DNA from: Streptosporangiaceae bacterium
GTDB lineage: Bacteria; Actinomycetota; Actinomycetes; Streptosporangiales; Streptosporangiaceae
DNA: 32,000 nucleotides
NCBI GenBank assembly: GCA_035308365.1
Contig: DATGGU010000179.1
Span: forward strand, 3,139 to 35,138
Direction: 5' to 3'
Shown here: piece after piece, positions 11,162 through 32,000 of the stretch
How the letters are laid out: every line of letters starts with the position of its first letter
Numbering within the stretch: the stretch's first letter is position 1
Notes under the pieces: model-generated
The model's input: the letters and a program-made list of their open reading frames with translations, nothing else
Told to the model about the DNA's origin: nothing
The model's database searches: none
Position numbers and translations under genes: made by a program

Positions 11162-11536
11162 CTACATTCCCCGCGCGGCCAGCGGGAGCACGCCGGTGTC
11201 GAAGCAGGTCCGGTCGCCGGTGTGGCAGGCGCCGCCGGCCTGGTCCACCTTGACCAGCACGGTGTCGCCGTCGCAGTCCAGCGCCACAGATATCACCCGC
11301 TGCCCGTTCCCGGAGGTGGCGCCCTTGACCCAGTACTCCTGCCGGCTGCGCGACCAGTAGGTGCACAGCCCGGTGGTCAGGGTGCGGTGCAGCGCCTCGT
11401 CGTCCATCCAGGCGAGCATCAGCACCTCGCCGGTGTCGTACTGCTGCGCGATGGCGGGAAACAGCCCGGCCGCATCCCGCTTGAGCCGCGCGGCGATCTC
11501 GGGGTCCAGCCGTGACGGGCGAATGACGCTGGTCAC
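11162..11536 (-). CDS. hisI: Phosphoribosyl-AMP cyclohydrolase
   Basis: ...[85 protein letters not shown].... Confidence 0.97.
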
Positions 11537-11666
11537 GTGTGCTCACTCCTCTGCCGTTTGAAAAAGCATAGGACCTGAACGATGCCCGCCATCCCGGTGG
11601 TCACCGCGGACCGGTCGCGGGGGGCGCCCATTCCCCTGGCGGGCGCCGGCCCCTACTCTCTGTGCA

Positions 11667-12314
11667 ATGACGTACTCCCGGGATGAGCGACTCGCGCTGT
11701 GCGCCGCGCTCGATGAGGCCGGCCCGGACGCGCCAACCCTGTGTGATGGCTGGGCCACCCGTGACCTCGCCGCCCATCTGGTGCTGCGCGAACACCGCCC
11801 GGACGCCGCCGCTGGAATGCTGGGCGGCCCGCTGGCCAAGCACACCCAGCGGGTCCAGCAGGGGATCGCCGAGCGGACCCCCTACCCGCGGCTGGTCCAG
11901 ATCGTCCGGGACGGGCCGCCGAGGCTGTCGTTCTTCGGGCTGCCCGGCATGGACGCGCGGGCCAACCTGGTCGAGTACTTCGTGCACCACGAGGACGTGC
12001 GGCGCGGCGCGCCCGGCTGGGAACCGCGCGAACTCGGCGCGGGCCTGGCCGAGGCGCTGTGGTCCCGGCTGGGCATGACCCGGCTGATCCTGCGCCGGGT
12101 GCCGGTCGGCATCGAGTTCGCCAGGGACGACGTGGCGGACGGCCAGACGCGGCACCGGATGACGATCAAGACGGCCACCCCGGTGGTCACCGTGATCGGG
12201 CCGCCCGCCGAGCTGACCCTGTGGGCCCTGGGCCGCACCGGCGCCGCCCACGTCCGGCTGGACGGCGCCGAATCGGCCATCCAGAAGGTGACCGCGTCCA
12301 ACTGGCGGCTATAG
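11667..12314 (+). CDS. TIGR03085 / maleylpyruvate isomerase-like (DinB/MDMPI N-terminal) family protein
   Basis: MTYSRDERLALCAALDEAGPDAPTLCDGWATRDLAAHLVLREHRPDAAAGML...GMDARANLVEYFVHHEDVRRGAPGWEPREL.... Confidence 0.85.
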   Translation: MTYSRDERLALCAALDEAGPDAPTLCDGWATRDLAAHLVLREHRPDAAAGMLGGPLAKHTQRVQQGIAERTPYPRLVQIVRDGPPRLSFFGLPGMDARANLVEYFVHHEDVRRGAPGWEPRELGAGLAEALWSRLGMTRLILRRVPVGIEFARDDVADGQTRHRMTIKTATPVVTVIGPPAELTLWALGRTGAAHVRLDGAESAIQKVTASNWRL

Positions 12315-12325
12315 GGCTGGCGCCC

Positions 12326-13645
12326 TCATGGGCTCAGCCGGTGGATGTCGCGCGGGAACAGGGTGGCGCTGCGGACGTTGGCGGCGCCGGTGAGCCGGGA
12401 GGTCCAGCGTTCCAGGCCCATCGCGAAGCCGCCGTGCGGTGGCATGCCCGCGGCGAAGACGCCCAGGTAGCCGGCGTAGGGCCCGGGGTCCTCGCCGCGC
12501 TGGGCGAGCGCGGCCAGGTAGTCCTCGTGCCGGTGCAGCCGCTGGCCGCCGGTGACGATCTCCAGGCCGCGCAGCAGCAGGTCGAAGCTGTTGGAGTAGC
12601 CGGGGCGGCCGGGCTCGGGGTGGGTGTAGAACGGGCGCTTGGCCATCGGGTAGCCGGTGACGTAGAGGAACTCCGAGCCGTGCTCACGGACCGCCCAGTC
12701 CGACAGCCAGCGTTCGTGCGCCGGGGCCAGGTCCGGCTCGCCGCGCGGGTCTTCGCCCGTTTCCCTGGCCATCAGCTCCTGGGCCTCGGCGATGTGGATC
12801 TCGGGGATCCGGGCCGGCACCTCGGGCAGCTTGGCGCCGAGCAGTTCGATCGCGGCGCTGGCCCGGTCAGAGATGGTGGCCACCATGCCCGCCGTGACCT
12901 CGGTGAGCACCGCCATCACGTCGTGGTGGTCCTCGATGAACCCGAACTCGGCGTCCAGGCTGAGATACTGAGCCAGGTGGCGGGCGGTGTCGTGCGGCTC
13001 GGCCCGGAAGGCGGGGGCGGTCTCGTAGACCCGCTCGAACACGCCCACCATGGCCTGCTTGTAGAACTGTGGCGACTGGGCCAGGTAGGCCCGCTGGCCG
13101 AAGTAGTCGATGCCGAACACGTTCGCCCCGGACTCGGTCGCCGACCGCACGATCTTGGGTGTGCTTATCTCGGTGAAGCCGAGCCCGTCCAGCGTGGCCC
13201 GGAACCCGGCGACGGCGGCCGCGCTGATCTCGAACGGCGCGCGCAGCAGCGGGTGCCGCAGGCTGGCCGGAGCGTTGTCCAGGATGGTGGGCAGGCTGGC
13301 GGTGACCGTGGGCCGGTACAGGTCGAACGGCGGCCGGGCCGCCGGGCCCGACAGCGGCGTGATCACCGGCCGGACCAGCTCCGCCCCGCCGGGCGCCTGG
13401 TCGCTGGCGGCCACCGTGCCGGTGACGGACAGGACGGTTTCCTCGGCGAACCCGGCCGCCGCCGCTATCTCGTCCGGAGCGGCCAGGACCACCTGGGCCA
13501 GGCCGGACCGGTCGCGGATGACCAGGAACGTCATGGACTTGAGCGGCCGGCGGCGGTGCAGCCAGCCAGCGATGCGGATCCGCTCACCGGCGTGCGCGGG
13601 CACGTCGGCGGCCATGACACGGACAGCAGGGACACGAGAGATCAT
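12326..13645 (-). CDS. aspS: Aspartyl-tRNA synthetase, archaeal/AspRS2 type (possibly non-discriminating)
   Basis: From the ATG at 13645 (GGAG SD 4 nt upstream): MISRVPAVRVMAADVPAHAGERIRIAGWLHRRRPLKSMTFLVIRDRSGLAQVVLA...PQFYKQAMVGVFERVYETAPAFRAEPHDTARHLAQYLSLDAEFGF...GMPPHGGFAMGLERWTSRLTGAANVRSATLFPRDIHRLSP. It is 439 aa and lacks the GAD insertion expected in typical bacterial AspRS (~580-600 aa). Confidence 0.92.
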   Translation of the reverse strand: MISRVPAVRVMAADVPAHAGERIRIAGWLHRRRPLKSMTFLVIRDRSGLAQVVLAAPDEIAAAAGFAEETVLSVTGTVAASDQAPGGAELVRPVITPLSGPAARPPFDLYRPTVTASLPTILDNAPASLRHPLLRAPFEISAAAVAGFRATLDGLGFTEISTPKIVRSATESGANVFGIDYFGQRAYLAQSPQFYKQAMVGVFERVYETAPAFRAEPHDTARHLAQYLSLDAEFGFIEDHHDVMAVLTEVTAGMVATISDRASAAIELLGAKLPEVPARIPEIHIAEAQELMARETGEDPRGEPDLAPAHERWLSDWAVREHGSEFLYVTGYPMAKRPFYTHPEPGRPGYSNSFDLLLRGLEIVTGGQRLHRHEDYLAALAQRGEDPGPYAGYLGVFAAGMPPHGGFAMGLERWTSRLTGAANVRSATLFPRDIHRLSP

Positions 13646-13935
13646 CGCACTCCTTCCCGGGATGCCTGATCCCCTCGGAGTGCGGGCGAGAAGGGAGACT
13701 CGCTGTGCCACCGCACCTTCGCCGCCGCCTGGCTGGCAAGCGGCCTCTGCGGGCCCGGTGACGGGGGCTAACCGGCGGGGCATGGGGCAGGCCGCTGGCC
13801 GCGGCCGCCGTTCCTCCCCGCACTCGGGAGGGTCTTCGCCACAGGGCGCGAGTCCGCCTTCACAGCTCCCGGCGGCTCTCTGTGTTCGGATGAACAGTGC
13901 TCGCGTGCTCCTGCGCTACTCGTCTCCGTCAGCGC
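13646..13935 (-). promoter_or_regulatory. T-box riboswitch leader of aspS, predicted translational (SD-sequestering) type
   Basis: On the minus strand: loop-E partner AGTA (13920-13917) and GAA (13837-13835); candidate specifier GAC (13834-13832); GGAG/CTCC closing pair (13927-13924 / 13830-13827); AGAGAG-CCGCC-GGGAGCTGTGAA-GGCGG distal element; T-box helix GCGG-[TGGCACA]-GCGAG-TCTCCCTT-CTCGC-CCGC (13714-13682); mutually exclusive SD hairpin CGCACTCC (13684-13677) / GGAGTGCG (13653-13646) directly before the ATG. Confidence 0.85.
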
Positions 13936-13974
13936 GTTACCATCCAGGATACTGGCACGGGAGGAGAAGCTTTC

Positions 13975-14760
13975 ATGCACGCACTCGGCGTTGACATCGG
14001 CGGTACCGGGATCAAGGCCGCTCCGGTGGACGTGGCGGCGGGCAAGCTGCTGGAGGCGCGGCAGAAGATCGCCACCCCGCACCCGGCGACCCCGCAGGCG
14101 GTCGCGGACGTGGTGACCCAGCTGGTCAAGGCGTTCGGCTGGTCCGGGCCGGTGGGCATCACGTTCCCCGGCGTGGTCGTGGACGGCGTCACCCGGACCG
14201 CGGCCAACGTGGACCACGGCTGGATCGGCCTGGACGCGCGGTCGCTGCTGGCCAAGGCCACCGGCCAGGACGTCAGCGTGATCAACGACGCGGACGCCGC
14301 CGGGATGGCGGAGATGGAGTTCGGCGCGGGCAAGAACGTGGCCAGCACCGTGCTCATGCTGACACTGGGCACCGGGATCGGCAGTGCGCTGTTCATCGAC
14401 GGCATCCTGGTGCCGAACACCGAGTTCGGCCACATCGAGATCCGGGGCAAGGACGCGGAGAAGCGGGCGTCCGAGATCGTCCGGGAGACGCACGACCTGA
14501 GCTGGGGCAAGTGGGCGGGCCGGGTGGATGAGTACCTGCGGCACATGGAGGCGCTGCTGTCGCCCAGCCTGTTCATCATCGGCGGCGGGATCAGCAAGGA
14601 GTCGAAGAAGTTCTTTCCGCTGCTGACCGGGATCAAGGCGCGGATCGAGCCCGCGCACCTGCTCAACGATGCCGGGATCGTCGGCGCGGCCATGCACGCG
14701 CATCCCGGATACACCCGGTACAAGCGCGGCGGCGGGAACGAGACCGCCAGCGCGGGCTGA
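13975..14760 (+). CDS. ppgK: Polyphosphate glucokinase (ROK family)
   Basis: MHALGVDIGGTGIKAAPVDVAAGKLLEARQKIATPHPATPQAVADVV...VGITFPGVVVDGVTRTAANVDHGWIG...LMLTLGTGIGSALFIDGILVPNTEFGHIEIRGKDAEKRAS...; RBS gggaggagaa. Confidence 0.93.
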   Translation: MHALGVDIGGTGIKAAPVDVAAGKLLEARQKIATPHPATPQAVADVVTQLVKAFGWSGPVGITFPGVVVDGVTRTAANVDHGWIGLDARSLLAKATGQDVSVINDADAAGMAEMEFGAGKNVASTVLMLTLGTGIGSALFIDGILVPNTEFGHIEIRGKDAEKRASEIVRETHDLSWGKWAGRVDEYLRHMEALLSPSLFIIGGGISKESKKFFPLLTGIKARIEPAHLLNDAGIVGAAMHAHPGYTRYKRGGGNETASAG

Positions 14761-14766
14761 CGGGTT

Positions 14767-15528
14767 CTACCTGACGGTGTGGCCGGCCGCGCGCAGCGCG
14801 GCCTTGACCTCGCCGATGCGGACCAGGCCGAAGTGGAAGACGCTGGCGGCAAGCACGGCGTCGGCGCCAGCCTCGACGGCCGGCGGGAAGTCGGCGGCGC
14901 GGCCTGCGCCGCCGCTGGCGATCACCGGCACGTCCACGGCCTGCCGGACCGCCCGGATCAGCTCCAGGTCGAAACCGGCCGCGGTGCCGTCGGCGTCCAT
15001 CGAGTTCAGCAGGATCTCACCGGCGCCGAGTGCGGCGCCGCGGCGGGCCCACTGGACGGCGTCGATGCCGGTGCCCCGGCGGCCGCCGTGCGTGGTCACC
15101 TCGAACCCGGATCCGGTGCCCGCCGTGCGGCGGGCGTCCACCGACAGCACCATGCACTGGCGGCCGAACCGCCGGGCCGCCTCGGCCAGCAGTTCGGGCC
15201 TGGCCACGGCCGCGGTGTTCAGCGAGACCTTGTCGGCGCCGGCCCGCAGCAGCCGGTCCACATCGTCCACGCCGCGCACCCCGCCGCCCACCGTCAGCGG
15301 GATGAACACCTGCCCGGCCGTGCGGCTGACCACGTCGTAGCTGGTCTGCCGGCCGGCGCTGGACGCGGTGATGTCCAGGAAGGTCAGCTCGTCCGCGCCC
15401 TCCGCGTCGTAGGCGGCGGCCAGCTCGACCGGGTCGCCGGCGTCGCGCAGATCGCGGAAGTTCACCCCCTTGACCACCCGGCCGGCGTCAACGTCAAGAC
15501 ACGGGATCACCCGGACCGCGACGGTCAC
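14767..15528 (-). CDS. hisF: Imidazole glycerol phosphate synthase subunit HisF
   Basis: From the GTG at 15528: [69 protein letters not shown]...[34 protein letters not shown].... Confidence 0.97.
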
Positions 15529-15562
15529 GGTGCCGTCCTCGCCGGCCGGTCCTGGAGAATCC

Positions 15563-16285
15563 TCACGGGGCCACCGCGCCGAGGGCTTCTTCCAGGGTGA
15601 ACTTCCCGGCGTAGAGGGCCTTGCCGACGATGGCGCCCTCAACGCCGAGGGGGGCCAGCGTGGCGACCTCGCGCAGGTCGCCGAGGCTGGCCACTCCCCC
15701 GCTGGCGACGACCGGGCGTCTGGTATGCGCACAGACCAGGCGCAGCAGACCGGTGTTGCAGCCGGTCAGCGTGCCATCCCTGGCCACGTCGGTGACCACG
15801 TACCGGGGGCAGCCCTCGGCCTCCAGCCGGGCCAGCACCTCGAGCAGTTCGCCGCCCTCGGCGGTCCAGCCGCGGGCGGCCAGCCGGGTGCCGCGGACGT
15901 CCAGGCCGACGGCGATCTTGTCGCCGTGCCTCGCGATGATCTCCCGCACCCAGTCCGGCCGCTCCAGCGCCGCGGTGCCGATGTTCACCCGGGCGCAGCC
16001 GGTGGCCAGGGCGGCCGCCAGCGAATCGTCGTCGCGGATGCCGCCGGACAGCTCGACCGCGATGTCGAGCTTGCCCACCACCTCGGCCAGCAGCCCGGCG
16101 TTGGAGCCGCGGCCGAACGCGGCGTCCAGGTCGACCAGGTGTACCCAGCTCGCCCCGCCACGCTGCCATGCCAGCGCGGCCTCCACCGGGTTGCCGTAGC
16201 TGGTCTGTGACCCCGCCTCGCCGCGGACCAGGCGCACCGCCTGGCCGCCGGCGACGTCCACGGCGGGCAGCAGGGTGAAGCTCAT
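15563..16285 (-). CDS. hisA: HisA / PriA phosphoribosyl isomerase
   Basis: From the ATG at 16285: [70 protein letters not shown]...[17 protein letters not shown]...; start overlaps the hisH stop. Confidence 0.96.
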
Positions 16286-16917
16286 GTCAGCGTCTCCAGC
16301 CAGTTGGCCAGCAGCGTGGCGCCGGCGTCGCCGGACTTCTCCGGGTGGAACTGGGTCGCCCACAGCGGCCCGTGCTCGGCCGCGGCGATGAACGGCTCGC
16401 CGTGCTCGGCCCAGCTCAGCAGCGGCCCCGGCAGCCTGGCCGCGGGCTCCCAGGGGCAGGAGGTCGCGGCGTAGGAGTGCACGAAGTAGAACCGGGTACC
16501 CGGGTCCAGGCCCGCCAGCAGCGCCGAGCCCGCGGCCGGGGTGACGGTGTTCCAGCCCATGTGCGGCAGCACCGGCGCCTTCAGGCGGCCGACCGTGCCG
16601 GGCCACTCGCCGATGCCCTGGGTCCGCACGCCGTGCTCGTCGCCGGTCTCGAACAGCACCTGCATGCCGACACAGATGCCGAGCACCGGCCGCGCCCCGG
16701 CCAGCCGGCGGTCGATGATCATGTCACCGCGGACCGCGCGCAGCCCGGCCATGCAGGCGGCGAACGCGCCGACGCCGGGCACGACCAGGCCGTCGCAGTT
16801 CATCGCCTCGCCGAACGCGGCGGTGACCGTGACCTGCGCGCCGGCCCGCTCCAGCGCCCGCTGGGCGGACCGCAGGTTGCCCGAGCCGTGATCGAGGACG
16901 ACGACCCTGGGCTTCAC
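16282..16917 (-). CDS. hisH: Imidazole glycerol phosphate synthase subunit HisH
   Basis: [32 protein letters not shown]...[18 protein letters not shown]...FYFVHSYAA...[14 protein letters not shown], class I amidotransferase triad. Confidence 0.97.
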
Positions 16918-17507
16918 AGAACCCCTTTGGTGCTGGGCACGCCGCCGGCCCGCGGGTCCGGGGCGGCGGCGGCGCGCAGCGCCCGGGCCACGGCCTTGAA
17001 CTGCGCCTCCACGATGTGGTGGGGGTTACGCCCGGACAGCACGAGCACGTGGATGCAGATCCCGGCGACGCTGCCGAGCGTCTCGAAGAAATGCCTGGTC
17101 AGCGTCGTGTCATAGGTGCCGATCAGGGGCGGCATGGCGTCCGGCTCCTGGTGCACCACATACGGCCGCCCGGACAGGTCCACCGCGGCCTGCACCAGCG
17201 CCTCGTCCAGCGGCACGAGCGCGTTGCCGAACCGGGTGATCCCCGACTTGTCGCCGAGCGCCTGGCGCAGCGCCTCACCGAGCACGATCGCGGTGTCCTC
17301 CACCGTGTGGTGCGCGTCCACCTCGATGTCGCCGCTGGCCCGCACGCTCAGGTCCAGGCTGCCGTGCCTGCCGAGCTGGGCCAGCATGTGGTCGAAGAAC
17401 GGCACCCGGGTGGCGACGTCAACCACCCCGATCCCGTCCAGGTCGAGCTCAACCAGCACCTGGGTCTCGTTGGTGAGGCGCTCCACCCGCGCCACCCGGT
17501 TGTTCAC
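16914..17507 (-). CDS. hisB: Imidazoleglycerol-phosphate dehydratase
   Basis: From the GTG at 17507: [94 protein letters not shown].... Confidence 0.97.
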
Positions 17508-18598
17508 CGCCCGGTCCTGGGGGTGTCGAGCACCGCGCTGAGTGCGGTGCGGAACACGGTCATCTCGTCCGGCGTGCCGATGCTCACCCGCAGCCACCCC
17601 GGCGGGCCGGTCTCGCGGATCAGCACCCCCCGGTCGAGCAGTCCCTGCCAGACGGCGTGCCGGTCGGCCAGGCCGCCGAACATGACGAAGTTGGCGTCCG
17701 ACTCGGCCACCCGCAGCCCGAGACCGCGCAGCCAGTCCGCGGTCCGGTCGCGTTCGGCGCGCAACTGCGCCACACATTCGAGCAGCTCACCGGACCGGCG
17801 CAGCGCGGCCCTGGCGGCCGCCTGGGTCAGCGCGGACAGATGGTAGGGCAGCCGGACGACAAGCAGGGCGCCGATCACCCTGGGGTCCGCGGCCAGGTAG
17901 CCGACCCTGGCGCCGGCCAGCGCGAACGCCTTGGACATGGTCCGGGTGACCACGAGCCGCGGGTAGCCGGGCAGCAGTTCCAGGGCACTGCGGGTGCCCG
18001 GCCGGGCGAACTCGGCGTAGGCCTCGTCCACCACGACCATGCCGGGCGCGGCCGCGCAGACCGCCTCGATCACCTCCAGCGGCAGCGCGGTTCCGGTGGG
18101 GTTGTTCGGCGAGGTGAGGAACACCAGGCCGGGCGCGGCCTCGCGGACCCGCCCGGCGGCGTAATCGGCGTCCAGCCGGAAGTCGCCGGGCCGGCCGGCG
18201 TTCAGCCAGGCGGTGCCGGTGATCCGGGCGATCAGCGGGTGCATCGAGTAGGACGGCTCGAAGCCGAGCGCGGTGCGGCCGTGCCCGCCGAACGCCTGCA
18301 GCAGCTGCTGAAGGATCTCGTTGGACCCGTTGGCCGCCCAGACCTGCCGCCAGGTCAGCCCGTGCCCGAGATAGCCGGCCAGGCCGGCCCGCAGCTCGGT
18401 CGCGTCCCGGTCCGGGTAGCGGTTCAGCGAGGCCGCGGCGCCGGCCGCCGCCTCGGCGATCTCCCCGACCAGCGCCTCCGGCGGCGGGTAGGGGTTCTCG
18501 TTGGTGTTCAGCCGGACCGGCACGTCCAGCTGCGGTGCGCCGTAGGGTTCGAGCCCGGCCAGCTCAGGGCGCAGCGGCAGGGTGTCCATGGGGGTCAC
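17504..18598 (-). CDS. hisC: Histidinol-phosphate aminotransferase
   Basis: ...[21 protein letters not shown]...[17 protein letters not shown]...[22 protein letters not shown]...VVDEAYAEF...[17 protein letters not shown].... The GTG at 18598 overlaps the hisD stop; an alternative ATG lies at 18589. Confidence 0.96.
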
Positions 18599-19902
18599 GG
18601 GGCGCCCCGGGTGGCGACCGCGGCTACATGCGCTGGCAGGTCTTCGGCGCCGCCGAGGGCAGCCACCTGCGGCAGCGTGGCCGCCAGCGCGGCCTGGCTG
18701 CATTCCACGACGTTGACCAGCCGAAGGAAGGGCAGCACGGACAGGCCCGAGGTGTGCCGCGCCGACCCGCCGGTGGGCAGCACGTGATTCGATCCGGCCA
18801 GGTAGTCCCCGAGCGAGACCGGCGCGAACGGCCCGGCGAAGACGGCCCCGGCGCTGCGCACCCGCCGGGCCAGCTCACCGGCGTTCCTGGCCTGAATCTC
18901 CAGGTGCTCGGGCGCCCAGGCGTCCGCCACGGCCAGGGCGGCGTCCATATCGCCGGTGATCACCTGGGCGGACTGCCCGGCCAGCGCGGCCTCGACCCGC
19001 TCACGATGGCCGGCCGCCCGGACGCTGTGAGCCAGCTCGGCCGCTACCCGGCCGGCCAGGCCGGCGTCGGGGGTGATGAGCAGGCATGCGGCAAGCGGGT
19101 CGTGCTCGGCCTGCGCGATCAGGTCGGCAGCCAGGTACCTGGGGCTGGCCGTGTCATCGGCCACGATCGCTATCTCGGTCGGCCCGTTCTCGCCGTCGGT
19201 GCCGACCACGCCGCGCAGTACCCGCTTGGCCGCGGCCACGTAGACGTTCCCCGGGCCGGTGACCACGTCCACGGGGTCGCACTCGGGTGTGCCGTAGGCG
19301 AGCATGGCGAGCGCCTGTGCGCCGCCAACGGCGTGCACCTCGCTCACCCCCAGCAGCGCGCAGGCGGCCAGCACCGCCGGATGCGGCAGGCCGCCGTGGG
19401 CCGCCTGCGGCGGCGATGCCACGGCGATCTCACCAACCCCGGCGACCTGGGCCGGGACGACGTTCATGACCACCGACGAGGGGTAGGCGGTCAGACCGCC
19501 CGGCACGTAAACCCCGGCCCGGCCCACCGGCACGAACCGGCCGGTGACCGTCAGCCCGTCGGCGACCGGCGTGACGATGTCCCCGCGCAACTGGGCCCGG
19601 TGCACCAGGGTGGCGCGCCGGGCCGCCTCGGTGAGGGCCGCCCGCACCTGCTCGTCCAGCTTGCCGAGCGCGTCGTCGAGCGCACCGGCCGGGACTGCGG
19701 TCGAGGCCAGGTCCACCCCGTCGAACCGGCGGGTGTACTCACGCACCGCCGCGGCGCCGCGGCGCCGCACGTCCTCGCAGACCGGCTGGACCTGCAGCGC
19801 CGCGGTGGCCACGTCCAGGACGGCCCTGGGCAGCACGCCGTGCAGGGCAGCCCTGGTCAGCTCCGGTGCGGCCCTGCCCCGCAGGTCAATCGTGGCAAGC
19901 AT
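18595..19902 (-). CDS. hisD: Histidinol dehydrogenase
   Basis: [10 protein letters not shown]...[43 protein letters not shown]...[13 protein letters not shown]...[30 protein letters not shown].... Confidence 0.97.
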
Positions 19903-20055
19903 TGGCTCAGCCTATCGGGCCACCGCGCAGCGTGGCGGCTGTGCATCACGGCGGGACACCCTGATGCGAGCGTACGGCCTGCGTGGCACTCTTATCGGAC
20001 CAGCGTCCGGCATACCGGGGCCAGTGTCCGGACCACAGACGAAAGTGAACCACCG

Positions 20056-31124: not shown

Positions 31125-31190
31125 GACGCCTCCAGCGGGTAGGCGGAACGGCCCCCGGGCACACGGTAACCTAAGTGGCAGCGCGGCGTT

Positions 31191-31410
31191 GATCCGGCTA
31201 TCACCGGGGAGCCTCCGGAAGAACGGGTGCCTGCACCTCAGTAGAACCGGACGGGTGGGCCCGTCACAGCCTGTCGAATGAGCGGTCGTCATATCAGCCA
31301 GATCCCTGGCTGGCGTGGTGGCAAGCGAGGTGGTACCGCGGTGTCGCCCGGGCCGGTGGCCCTGGGATGCCGTCCTCGCCGGAGTTGCGGACCGACCCGG
31401 AGGGAACCAC
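31191..31410 (+). promoter_or_regulatory. T-box riboswitch leader of ileS (actinobacterial ultrashort Stem I type)
   Basis: GGCTATCACCGGGGAGCCTCCGGAAGAACGG with specifier ATC (31200-31202), then GCGAGG-TGGTACC-GCGG (bulge 31331-31337) and partner CCTCGC near 31374-31379, directly upstream of ileS. Confidence 0.93.
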
Positions 31411-31413
31411 CGA

Positions 31414-32000
31414 ATGATCTATCCCAAGGCATCTGCGGGCAAGCGCGACGAGGGCGTGCCGCCCACTCCTCGTTTCCCGCAGATCGAGGAATGGGTCCTG
31501 GAGTACTGGGCGGCCGACGACACGTTCCGCGCGTCCGTGGAAAACCGTCCCGCGGGCGAGAACGGCTCCGACGAGTTCGTGTTCTATGACGGTCCCCCGT
31601 TCGCGAACGGCCTGCCGCATTACGGCCACCTGCTGACCGGCTATGTCAAGGACCTGATCCCGCGCTACCAGACCATGCGCGGGAAGCGGGTGGAGCGCCG
31701 GTTCGGCTGGGACACCCACGGTCTGCCGGCCGAGCTCGAGGCGATGCGGCAGCTTGGCATCAAGACCAAGGAGGAAATCGAGCAGGACTTCGGCATCGCC
31801 AGGTTCAACGAGGCGTGCCGGGCGTCGGTCCTGCGGTACACCCAGGCATGGCGCGACTACGTCACCCGGCAGGCCCGGTGGGTGGACTTCGGCAACGACT
31901 ACAAGACCCTCGACCTGAGCTACATGGAGAGCGTCATCTGGGCGTTCAAGCAGCTCTACGACAAGGGCCTGGTCTACGAGGGGTACCGGTGCCTGCCGTA
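31414..32000 (+). CDS. ileS: Isoleucyl-tRNA synthetase, partial (3' end beyond window)
   Basis: [110 protein letters not shown]...; HIGH-type motif (HYGH). Confidence 0.97.

Follow-up and report, generated by a model that had tools for sequence, protein, structure and literature searches.

A probable tRNA-Asp-specific T-box riboswitch with full-length Stem I in the leader ahead of a second, archaeal-type aspartyl-tRNA synthetase gene of a Streptosporangiaceae bacterium

T-box riboswitches specific for tRNA-Asp are well represented in the database TBDB, which lists 510 of them, 477 with GAC as specifier codon, and they are common in Firmicutes (supplement of PMC7778990). In Actinobacteria translational T-boxes are known and were described for ileS with a short Stem I (PMC7583486), and the T-boxes of this phylum altogether were described essentially as ileS leaders with a truncated Stem I (PMC1262725; PMC7583486; TBDB supplement, PMC7778990). 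According to a review from 2020 a few translational T-boxes retain a long Stem I (PMC7583486), and TBDB allows members that are termed 'class I translational'. A description of an Asp or a Ser T-box in Actinobacteria was not found in the literature searched, although an earlier description or cataloguing is possible. Here, we report on a stretch of 32,000 nucleotides from a Streptosporangiaceae bacterium (contig DATGGU010000179.1 of assembly GCA_035308365.1, positions 3,139 to 35,138 of the forward strand), referred to as the window. On its minus strand, comparative sequence analysis confirmed a full-length T-box leader at 13941..13646, which precedes a gene for an aspartyl-tRNA synthetase (AspRS), aspS2. 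It is likely a T-box riboswitch specific for tRNA-Asp, which would probably gate ribosome access to aspS2, a second AspRS gene of the archaeal, non-discriminating type. An initial annotation of this stretch had proposed a T-box acting by sequestration of the Shine-Dalgarno (SD) sequence, and the motifs that it listed (AGUA, GAA-GAC, AGAGA, GGGAGCUGUGAA, the T-box helix and the pair CGCACUCC/GGAGUGCG) were all found at their minus-strand places when the coordinates were rechecked.

The leader shares every module, their order and the GAC specifier with the class I T-boxes of family RF00230 and the Asp T-boxes of Firmicutes aspS and hisS-aspS. However, the competing hairpin of the window leader carries the SD sequence and has no U-tract, which suggests a sequestrator instead of a terminator. 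Moreover, the leader has a G+C content of about 72% with lineage-specific insertions and scores 27 bits against a cut-off of 93 bits, the host is a Streptosporangiales-like actinobacterium, and the gene encodes the archaeal-type non-discriminating AspRS. With the ileS T-boxes of M. tuberculosis, M. smegmatis and N. farcinica (TBDB class II) the leader shares the phylum and the logic of an anti-sequestrator opposed to an SD-sequestrator. In contrast to these, it has a long Stem I with elbow platform and its codon in an internal loop, whereas the ileS type has an ultrashort hairpin with the codon in the apical loop; its specifier is Asp and not Ile, and its bulge is UGGC and not UGGU. By its sequence, the aspS2 leader resembles TBDB class II in the output but is not a member of it. 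A leader of the ileS type is found in the same window at 31190-31416 (plus strand; ileS ATG at 31414), about 17.5 kb from the aspS2 leader, in agreement with the initial annotation. Its hairpin CCGG-CUAUCA-CCGG has a stem of 4 bp and exposes AUC in the apical loop, and the leader further has the T-box core GAGGUGGUACCGCGG, a long insertion in helix A2 of the discriminator domain and the SD sequence GGAGGG. RF00230 is silent on this ileS leader even at E<=10.

The gene under the putative control of the leader is the following:

12326..13645, minus strand: aspS2, encoding a 439-aa archaeal-type non-discriminating aspartyl-tRNA synthetase (NCBIfam NF003483), with the start codon AUG at 13645

In an NCBIfam profile search of the window proteins the aspS2 product matched NF003483 (aspartate--tRNA(Asn) ligase) with 523 bits at a cut-off of 353, bearing out the AspRS gene that had been proposed downstream of the leader. 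An assignment as AsnRS is unsupported, the asnS models giving 164-186 bits and thereby staying under their cut-offs, and bacterial AspRS models score far under their cut-offs. For comparison, 80 orthologous loci were collected in a protein-relative scan with one genome per species; they are 67-84% identical and derive mostly from Streptosporangiaceae, Nonomuraea and uncultured Actinomycetota. The protein homology search returned close relatives only (Trebonia, Streptosporangium, Microtetraspora) and nothing on distant lineages. The same leader is present in 78 of the 80 loci, and complete genomes with this leader include CP191982 and CP170570 of Nonomuraea; L024 is an aspS orthologue without leader, and in L038 Stem III and the T-box core are kept and unrelated sequence replaces Stems I and II (L038:2170-2510). 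Three segments were aligned and base pairs were counted for structures that we specified, with 500 shuffles and slid structures as controls:

Stem I: 92.5% of cells paired; 17 of 26 pairs changed on both sides; equalled in 0 of 500 shuffles; slid structures 39-51%

Stem II, IIA, IIB and Stem III: 94.4% of cells paired; 15 of 28 pairs changed on both sides; equalled in 0 of 500 shuffles; slid structures 42-52%

Discriminator helices A1 and A2: 97.3% of cells paired; 4 of 12 pairs changed on both sides; equalled in 0 of 500 shuffles; slid structures 35-66%

The helices exceed 500/500 shuffles and all slid controls, with the exception of the sequestrator, which is discussed below. The initial annotation had suggested such a covariation analysis of homologous aspS leaders, and covariation in all helices upholds its T-box with full-length Stem I. 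The compensatory changes in the helices together with the invariant motifs indicate, at the level of the aligned sequences, that the T-box identity is secure regardless of the Rfam score.

Stem I contains the following elements:

13821..13936, minus strand: Stem I at full length, with K-turn, GGAG/CUCC stem, specifier loop, three upper helices, AGAGA bulge and distal loop

13917..13920, minus strand: AGUA, 5' strand of the specifier-loop S-turn, invariant in 79 of 79 sequences and aligned to the AGUA of RF00230

13831..13837, minus strand: GAA (3' strand of the S-turn), specifier GAC (13834-13832) and post-codon C (13831), with GAA and GAC invariant in 79 of 79 sequences

13883..13897, minus strand: 15-nt hairpin insertion CUGUUCAUCCGAACA right before the AG bulge, an insertion in the RF00230 alignment and lineage-specific

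13853..13881, minus strand: AG bulge AGAGA (13881-13877), apical helix GCCGCC/GGCGGA and 12-nt distal loop GGGAGCUGUGAA (13870-13859), showing covariation

With 116 nt, Stem I has its codon in an internal loop, the 3' side of which reads GAA-GAC-C and continues into the CUCC that pairs with GGAG. Invariant across the 79 Stem I sequences are the GA of the K-turn, GGAG, AGUA, the AGA of the AG bulge, the GCUG of the distal loop (as GCUG..A), AAGAC and GAG. The apical helix is paired to 97.9%, with five of its six pairs changed on both sides, and the AG bulge and the distal loop by their sequence correspond to the tRNA-elbow platform of a long Stem I. The insertion CUGUUCAUCCGAACA is missing from most orthologues, and other clades have insertions of 20-40 nt at that spot. 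The K-turn of the initial annotation is present and its GA dinucleotides at 13930-13929 and 13825-13824 are both invariant, but its register had to be revised: the layout is CGC / bulge GCU / GA ... CGA / GUG, i.e., a C-stem of 3 bp, a 3-nt bulge and tandem G·A pairs. The middle pair of this C-stem (10-174) is G-U in 37, G-C in 30 and A-U in 12 sequences and is unpaired in none. The 5-bp helix CGCGC/GUGCG that had been drawn under the K-turn has one pair broken in 13 sequences and was rejected, the canonical 3-bp C-stem with the 3-nt bulge being preferred.

The codon register was assessed beyond the orthologues by scanning metagenome contigs for the scaffold with an open codon slot (pattern GAANNNNCTCCNGAGNGCGGGGAGGAA), which gave 119 matches with GAC in the slot in 114 cases and UCC in five. 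An AspRS homologue follows 97 of the 100 GAC leaders that have enough downstream sequence. The three exceptions without aspS downstream are leaders broken inside A2 (L092:~1460-1750, L116:8150-8520, L175:~2600-2900), and these three as well as L038 are, judged by their sequence, decayed copies. Behind seven GAC leaders a second AspRS clade is encoded, which is only 33-36% identical to the window's enzyme and still belongs to NF003483, suggesting that the link between leader and enzyme is old or that the leader moved between genes. The loci of this second clade are L101:652-1938 (minus strand), L109, L131, L117, L141, L083 and L094, and most of them have a UGGU bulge. The UCC leaders form a sister group:

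L093:2420-2745, L097:5470-5900, L112:760-1100, L140 (minus strand) and L172:820-1150, soil metagenome contigs: Ser sister leaders with UCC and serS

The UCC leader in L093 precedes serS (TIGR00414, 362 bits at a cut-off of 301.65), and in L097, L112, L140 and L172 the sequence after the leader starts with the same SerRS N-terminus as in L093. These leaders share with the window leader the scaffold nearly base for base (AACGCGCUGACGGAGAC.AGUAGCC ... GAA-NNN-A-CUCCCGAGUGCGGGGAGGAA ... GGUGGCACCGCGAG) and an SD sequence downstream of the T-box helix, and they differ in the codon slot, UCC, and in the gene, serS; moreover, the Stem I of L112 and L172 is shortened and lacks both AG bulge and distal loop. 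The occurrence of GAC before AspRS and of UCC before serS on one scaffold indicates that the codon slot tracks the enzyme, and the register of the proposed GAC specifier, invariant in 79 of 79 orthologues, is thereby fixed.

The initial annotation had left room for tRNA-Asn as a second ligand. Under dual sensing, tRNA-Asp would be read by Watson-Crick pairing and tRNA-Asn, having the anticodon GUU and a discriminator G, by a G·U pair at the first position. Such a scheme would suit an enzyme of family NF003483, which charges both tRNAs, and in bacteria both tRNA-Asp and tRNA-Asn have G73, matching UGGC. A partial induction by tRNA-Asn is also on record for the lysK T-box of B. cereus (PMC2916919); this precedent, however, concerns the third codon position and not the first. 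AAC stands in the codon slot of none of the 79 aligned orthologous leaders and of none of the 119 metagenome matches, so that the additional sensing of tRNA-Asn is unsupported and dual sensing is regarded as very improbable.

The specificity for tRNA-Asp that is proposed here also involves the 3' half of the leader, which comprises:

13775..13821, minus strand: Stem II, with GCGGGG/CCCCGC base, AGGAA S-turn (13815-13811) and extension hairpin (13809-13786)

13753..13774, minus strand: Stem IIA (CGG/CCG) and IIB pseudoknot (GCCC with GGGC), showing covariation

13721..13744, minus strand: Stem III, outer 6 bp 92.3% paired with four pairs changed on both sides, inner part variable in length

13679..13717, minus strand: discriminator or anti-sequestrator, with A1 GGUGCGG, 7-nt bulge UGGCACA, A2 GCGAG-loop-CUCGC and A1 3' strand CCGCACU

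The base helix of Stem II is paired to 99.1%. Its extension hairpin is clade-specific, with seven of eight pairs changed on both sides, and is missing in the Nonomuraea clade, and the five-purine string AGGAA is marked by near-invariance only. IIB is paired to 99%, and one pair of this pseudoknot is G-C in 53 and A-U in 24 sequences and unpaired in none. In the discriminator, GCGG-UGGCACA-GCGAG...CUCGC-CCGC lies at 13714-13682 with UGGC at 13710-13707 (minus strand), where the initial annotation had placed the T-box helix. Its A1 has to be extended from four to seven base pairs, GGUGCGG/CCGCACU, and all seven are kept in 74 of 74 distinct sequences. The UGGC bulge between A1 and A2 was borne out as well: the T-box sequence GGUGGCAC is conserved with GGUGG.AC invariant, and UGGC is the form of the bulge that the window shares with most of its relatives, 13 leaders having UGGU. 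Bacterial tRNA-Asp has G73, which matches UGGC. For the off state, folding also gave a small hairpin, GUGC/GCAC, across the UGG bulge; it is lost where A1 covaries (L064, L078) and was rejected.

Downstream of the discriminator the following hairpin is predicted:

13646..13684, minus strand: sequestrator hairpin, in which the anti-SD arm CGCACUCC (13684-13677) pairs with GGAGUGCG (13653-13646), with the inner helix GGGAU/AUCCC

The pairing of CGCACUCC with GGAGUGCG is perfect, the SD sequence AAGGAG at 13655-13650 lies in the 3' arm and the hairpin ends one base before the AUG. The A1 3' strand CCGCACU overlaps the anti-SD arm by 6 of its 8 nt and, with an A1 of 7 bp, the two states are therefore more clearly exclusive than in the first drawing. 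Folding of the 3' domain yields the sequestrator as the minimum free energy (MFE) structure (-35.7 kcal/mol, z=-2.1), and the MFE fold obtained for the leader as a whole contains it too. Once freed from A1, the 3' strand of this helix pairs with the 16 nt ahead of the start codon in 72 of 80 orthologues, as compared to 38% with shuffled 3' arms. Compensated variants of the sequestrator are three only, L002 and L004 (GCGCUCC/GGAGC, A-U to G-C) and L067 (ACACCUCC/GGAGGUGU). True covariation is scarce here because the T-box fixes the 5' arm, which is nearly invariant, and what speaks for the sequestrator in these sequences is conserved complementarity and not compensation.

Alternatively, a real T-box might act on transcription, with the hairpin CGCACUCC...GGAGUGCG and the comparatively U-rich AUGAUCUCUCGUGU forming a non-canonical intrinsic terminator, or with blocked translation exposing the transcript to Rho. 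The architecture is that of class I, which is nearly all transcriptional (PMC7583486), the U-ending codons 2-4 are conserved at the nucleotide level despite a G+C content at third codon positions (GC3) of about 0.9, and a ribosome binding site that is structured in both states would fit a switch acting elsewhere. However, no terminator-like site was found at the leader, which has no U-tract and at most 4 U in any 8-nt window after the stem, and not even this enrichment in U is seen in orthologues of the L013 type, which have other N-termini. Moreover, the SD sequence itself makes up the 3' arm of the hairpin, and in every clade this arm stops one base short of the AUG, like in the accepted translational class of ileS. 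A switch acting on transcription is for these reasons considered unlikely, and since no terminator is present, SD sequestration is the best-supported reading of the predicted output.

For regulation by SD sequestration the following mechanism is proposed. The GUC anticodon of uncharged tRNA-Asp would pair with GAC and its 3' GCCA end with UGGC, as expected from the T-box family, and this pairing would stabilise helix A1, GGUGCGG/CCGCACU. As six of the eight bases of CGCACUCC lie in the A1 3' strand, a locked A1 should prevent the sequestrator, i.e., block the hairpin in which GGAG and the four bases preceding the AUG are buried. Charged tRNA-Asp would be unable to lock A1, so that the sequestrator, which is predicted to be about 5-9 kcal/mol more stable, would win and initiation would be blocked. 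The size of the effect was estimated from the cost of opening the ribosome binding site. When A1 is forced, opening becomes cheaper, 3.5 instead of 12.0 kcal/mol in a model without coding sequence and, for positions -12 to +3, 11.2 instead of 15.1 kcal/mol in a model that includes 27 nt of it. As yardstick, the window's ileS T-box gave 7.6 and 4.0 kcal/mol, i.e., a shift of 3.6 kcal/mol. The modelled aspS2 switch, about 4 kcal/mol, thus resembles the accepted translational class in size and sits on top of a ribosome binding site that is predicted to be much more structured in both states. With the site strongly structured in both states, aspS2 would be poorly translated by default and induced when the charging of tRNA-Asp drops, suggesting a low basal translation that is modulated by the T-box.

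A candidate third pairing, termed H2, involves the beginning of the coding sequence:

13635..13677, minus strand: candidate third pairing H2, CGAGGGGAUCAGGCAU (13677-13662) with GUGCGAUGAUCUCUCG (13650-13635), covering spacer, AUG and codons 2-4

The complementarity involves the 15 nt that follow the anti-SD arm. The H2 duplex has -14.4 kcal/mol with z=-2.6 in the window, and z is below -1.64 in 62 of 80 orthologues, the upstream sequences of which differ between clades. With the A1 strand omitted, RNAalifold gives H2 as the consensus structure; its 7 bp are present in all of 59 sequences, and all changes seen in them are one-sided. The codons 2-4 (AUC UCU CGU) are U-ending and conserved at the nucleotide level in this genome with its GC3 of about 0.9. 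The exchange of GGGGAUCA for GGCCAUCA, combined with synonymous changes in codons 2-4, is an example of a change that should break H2. It might be imagined that the leader is a three-state device that senses tRNA-Asp and, via the first-position G·U, tRNA-Asn, and in which H2 makes the output depend on folding kinetics and not on a simple on/off equilibrium, but this is held to be quite unlikely.

Several observations weigh against the proposed tRNA-Asp-specific, translational T-box and concern its output, its specificity and its detection. With 27 nt of coding sequence, the best A1-forced structure in nearest-neighbour models keeps AUG and spacer paired via H2, and this A1 plus H2 structure has -36.9 kcal/mol compared to -41.7 kcal/mol for the sequestrator state. 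Forcing A1 cuts the opening cost by at least 2 kcal/mol in 37 of 80 leaders, and in Nonomuraea there is no drop at all. When the sequestrator was scored in fixed register on MAFFT columns, 69% was paired with no covariation above shuffles; this test was replaced by folding each sequence separately, as the clades differ in register and carry a 1-nt bulge. Of the burial of the SD sequence by a hairpin that competes with the T-box helix, as drawn in the initial annotation, the overlap of 6 nt and the pairing kept in 72 of 80 orthologues hold, but control by sequestration would have to operate with a start codon that H2 is predicted to keep paired in the 'on' state.

As to specificity, a tRNA-Asp gene, whose discriminator base should match UGGC, is present neither in the window nor in the 60 loci scanned, where the tRNAs found are Pro, Ser, Ala and Gly only. 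The codon is normally followed by a conserved purine, the base that stacks beneath the helix formed by codon and anticodon. In the clade of the window this base is C; among the 79 leaders, 47 have A, 30 have C and 48 altogether have a purine, and C is found in 75 of the 119 metagenome matches.

As to detection, the MFE fold of the whole 299-nt leader is without T-box architecture (z=-0.7), although as a test of architecture such a fold was dismissed as uninformative for an RNA with 72% G+C. The gathering score of RF00230 is missed by the window and by 10 of 10 orthologues tested, the best of which has 79.9 bits. In the window the alignment spans model positions 1-219 end to end at 13941-13679 (minus strand), with E=3.8e-4 for a region of 501 nt and E=0.024 for the whole 32-kb window. 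At the Rfam gathering threshold of 93 bits the window returns nothing and the leader is visible in E-value mode only, so that the covariance-model check proposed in the initial annotation gave a significant full-length match that lies well below the curated cut-off. By itself, this match is suggestive and weak. Among the 10 scored orthologues, however, all except L011 match the T-box model with 30-80 bits and E-values down to 1e-15, and the matches are full-length except in L009 (model positions 7-103). The gathering score is an operational annotation cut-off and not a structural feature, and it misses GC-rich actinobacterial members, as is seen from the window's ileS T-box, which escapes detection altogether.

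The low Rfam score could also be taken to mean that the leader is a decayed or chance look-alike of a T-box without regulatory role, or part of a longer coding sequence. True remnants do exist (L092, L116 and L175, broken in A2, and L038 without Stems I and II), and the aspS2 frame has no stop between its start and an ATG further upstream at 13783, which lies inside Stem II; the list of open reading frames contains a 485-aa version, 12326..13783. On the other hand, six helices show compensatory changes across 79 sequences, the motifs are invariant and the insertions in the helices vary in length. A coding N-terminal extension of aspS2 was rejected on upstream in-frame stops, which occur no more than 12 nt from the start in 22 of 80 orthologues, and annotated homologues begin at MISRV. 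A look-alike or a coding sequence is, with this evidence, scarcely credible. As a practical point for annotation, a gene caller choosing the ATG at 13783 would bury half of the riboswitch inside the coding sequence.

The leader is a real but fairly ordinary addition to a well-known RNA family, with a mechanism as expected, and the thinking on how T-boxes work is left unchanged. It shows that complete T-boxes of classical architecture exist in Streptosporangiales and related actinomycetes, with about 190 relatives and the Ser/serS sister group, and that such leaders control, as far as can be predicted, additional aminoacyl-tRNA synthetase genes in a group where T-boxes were known almost only for ileS. 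As these leaders score below the Rfam cut-off, routine annotation misses them, which constitutes a detection gap. Moreover, a natural T-box having a long Stem I and a putative translational platform allows testing whether the elbow platform is dispensable for translational control.

Upstream of Stem I, a promoter element might be present:

13946..13951, minus strand: -10-like promoter hexamer UAUCCU (TAnnnT; DNA TATCCT), identified by conservation only

A scan with the sigma-70 consensus gave no promoter match at the leader. The TAnnnT hexamer is located 10-12 nt ahead of a conserved AACG in 78 of 78 orthologous leaders, which places the probable start of transcription near 13940, at the base of Stem I. 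The intergenic gap between aspS2 and the divergent polyphosphate glucokinase gene (ppgK, plus strand, ATG at 13975, NF045942) has 330 bases. Besides ppgK, aspS2 is surrounded by the histidine biosynthesis genes hisI, hisH, hisC and hisD (window positions 11162-19911). In 14 orthologous loci (L008-L031, at about 1400-2130) a tRNA-Pro(GGG) gene is found a few hundred bases upstream of the leader instead.

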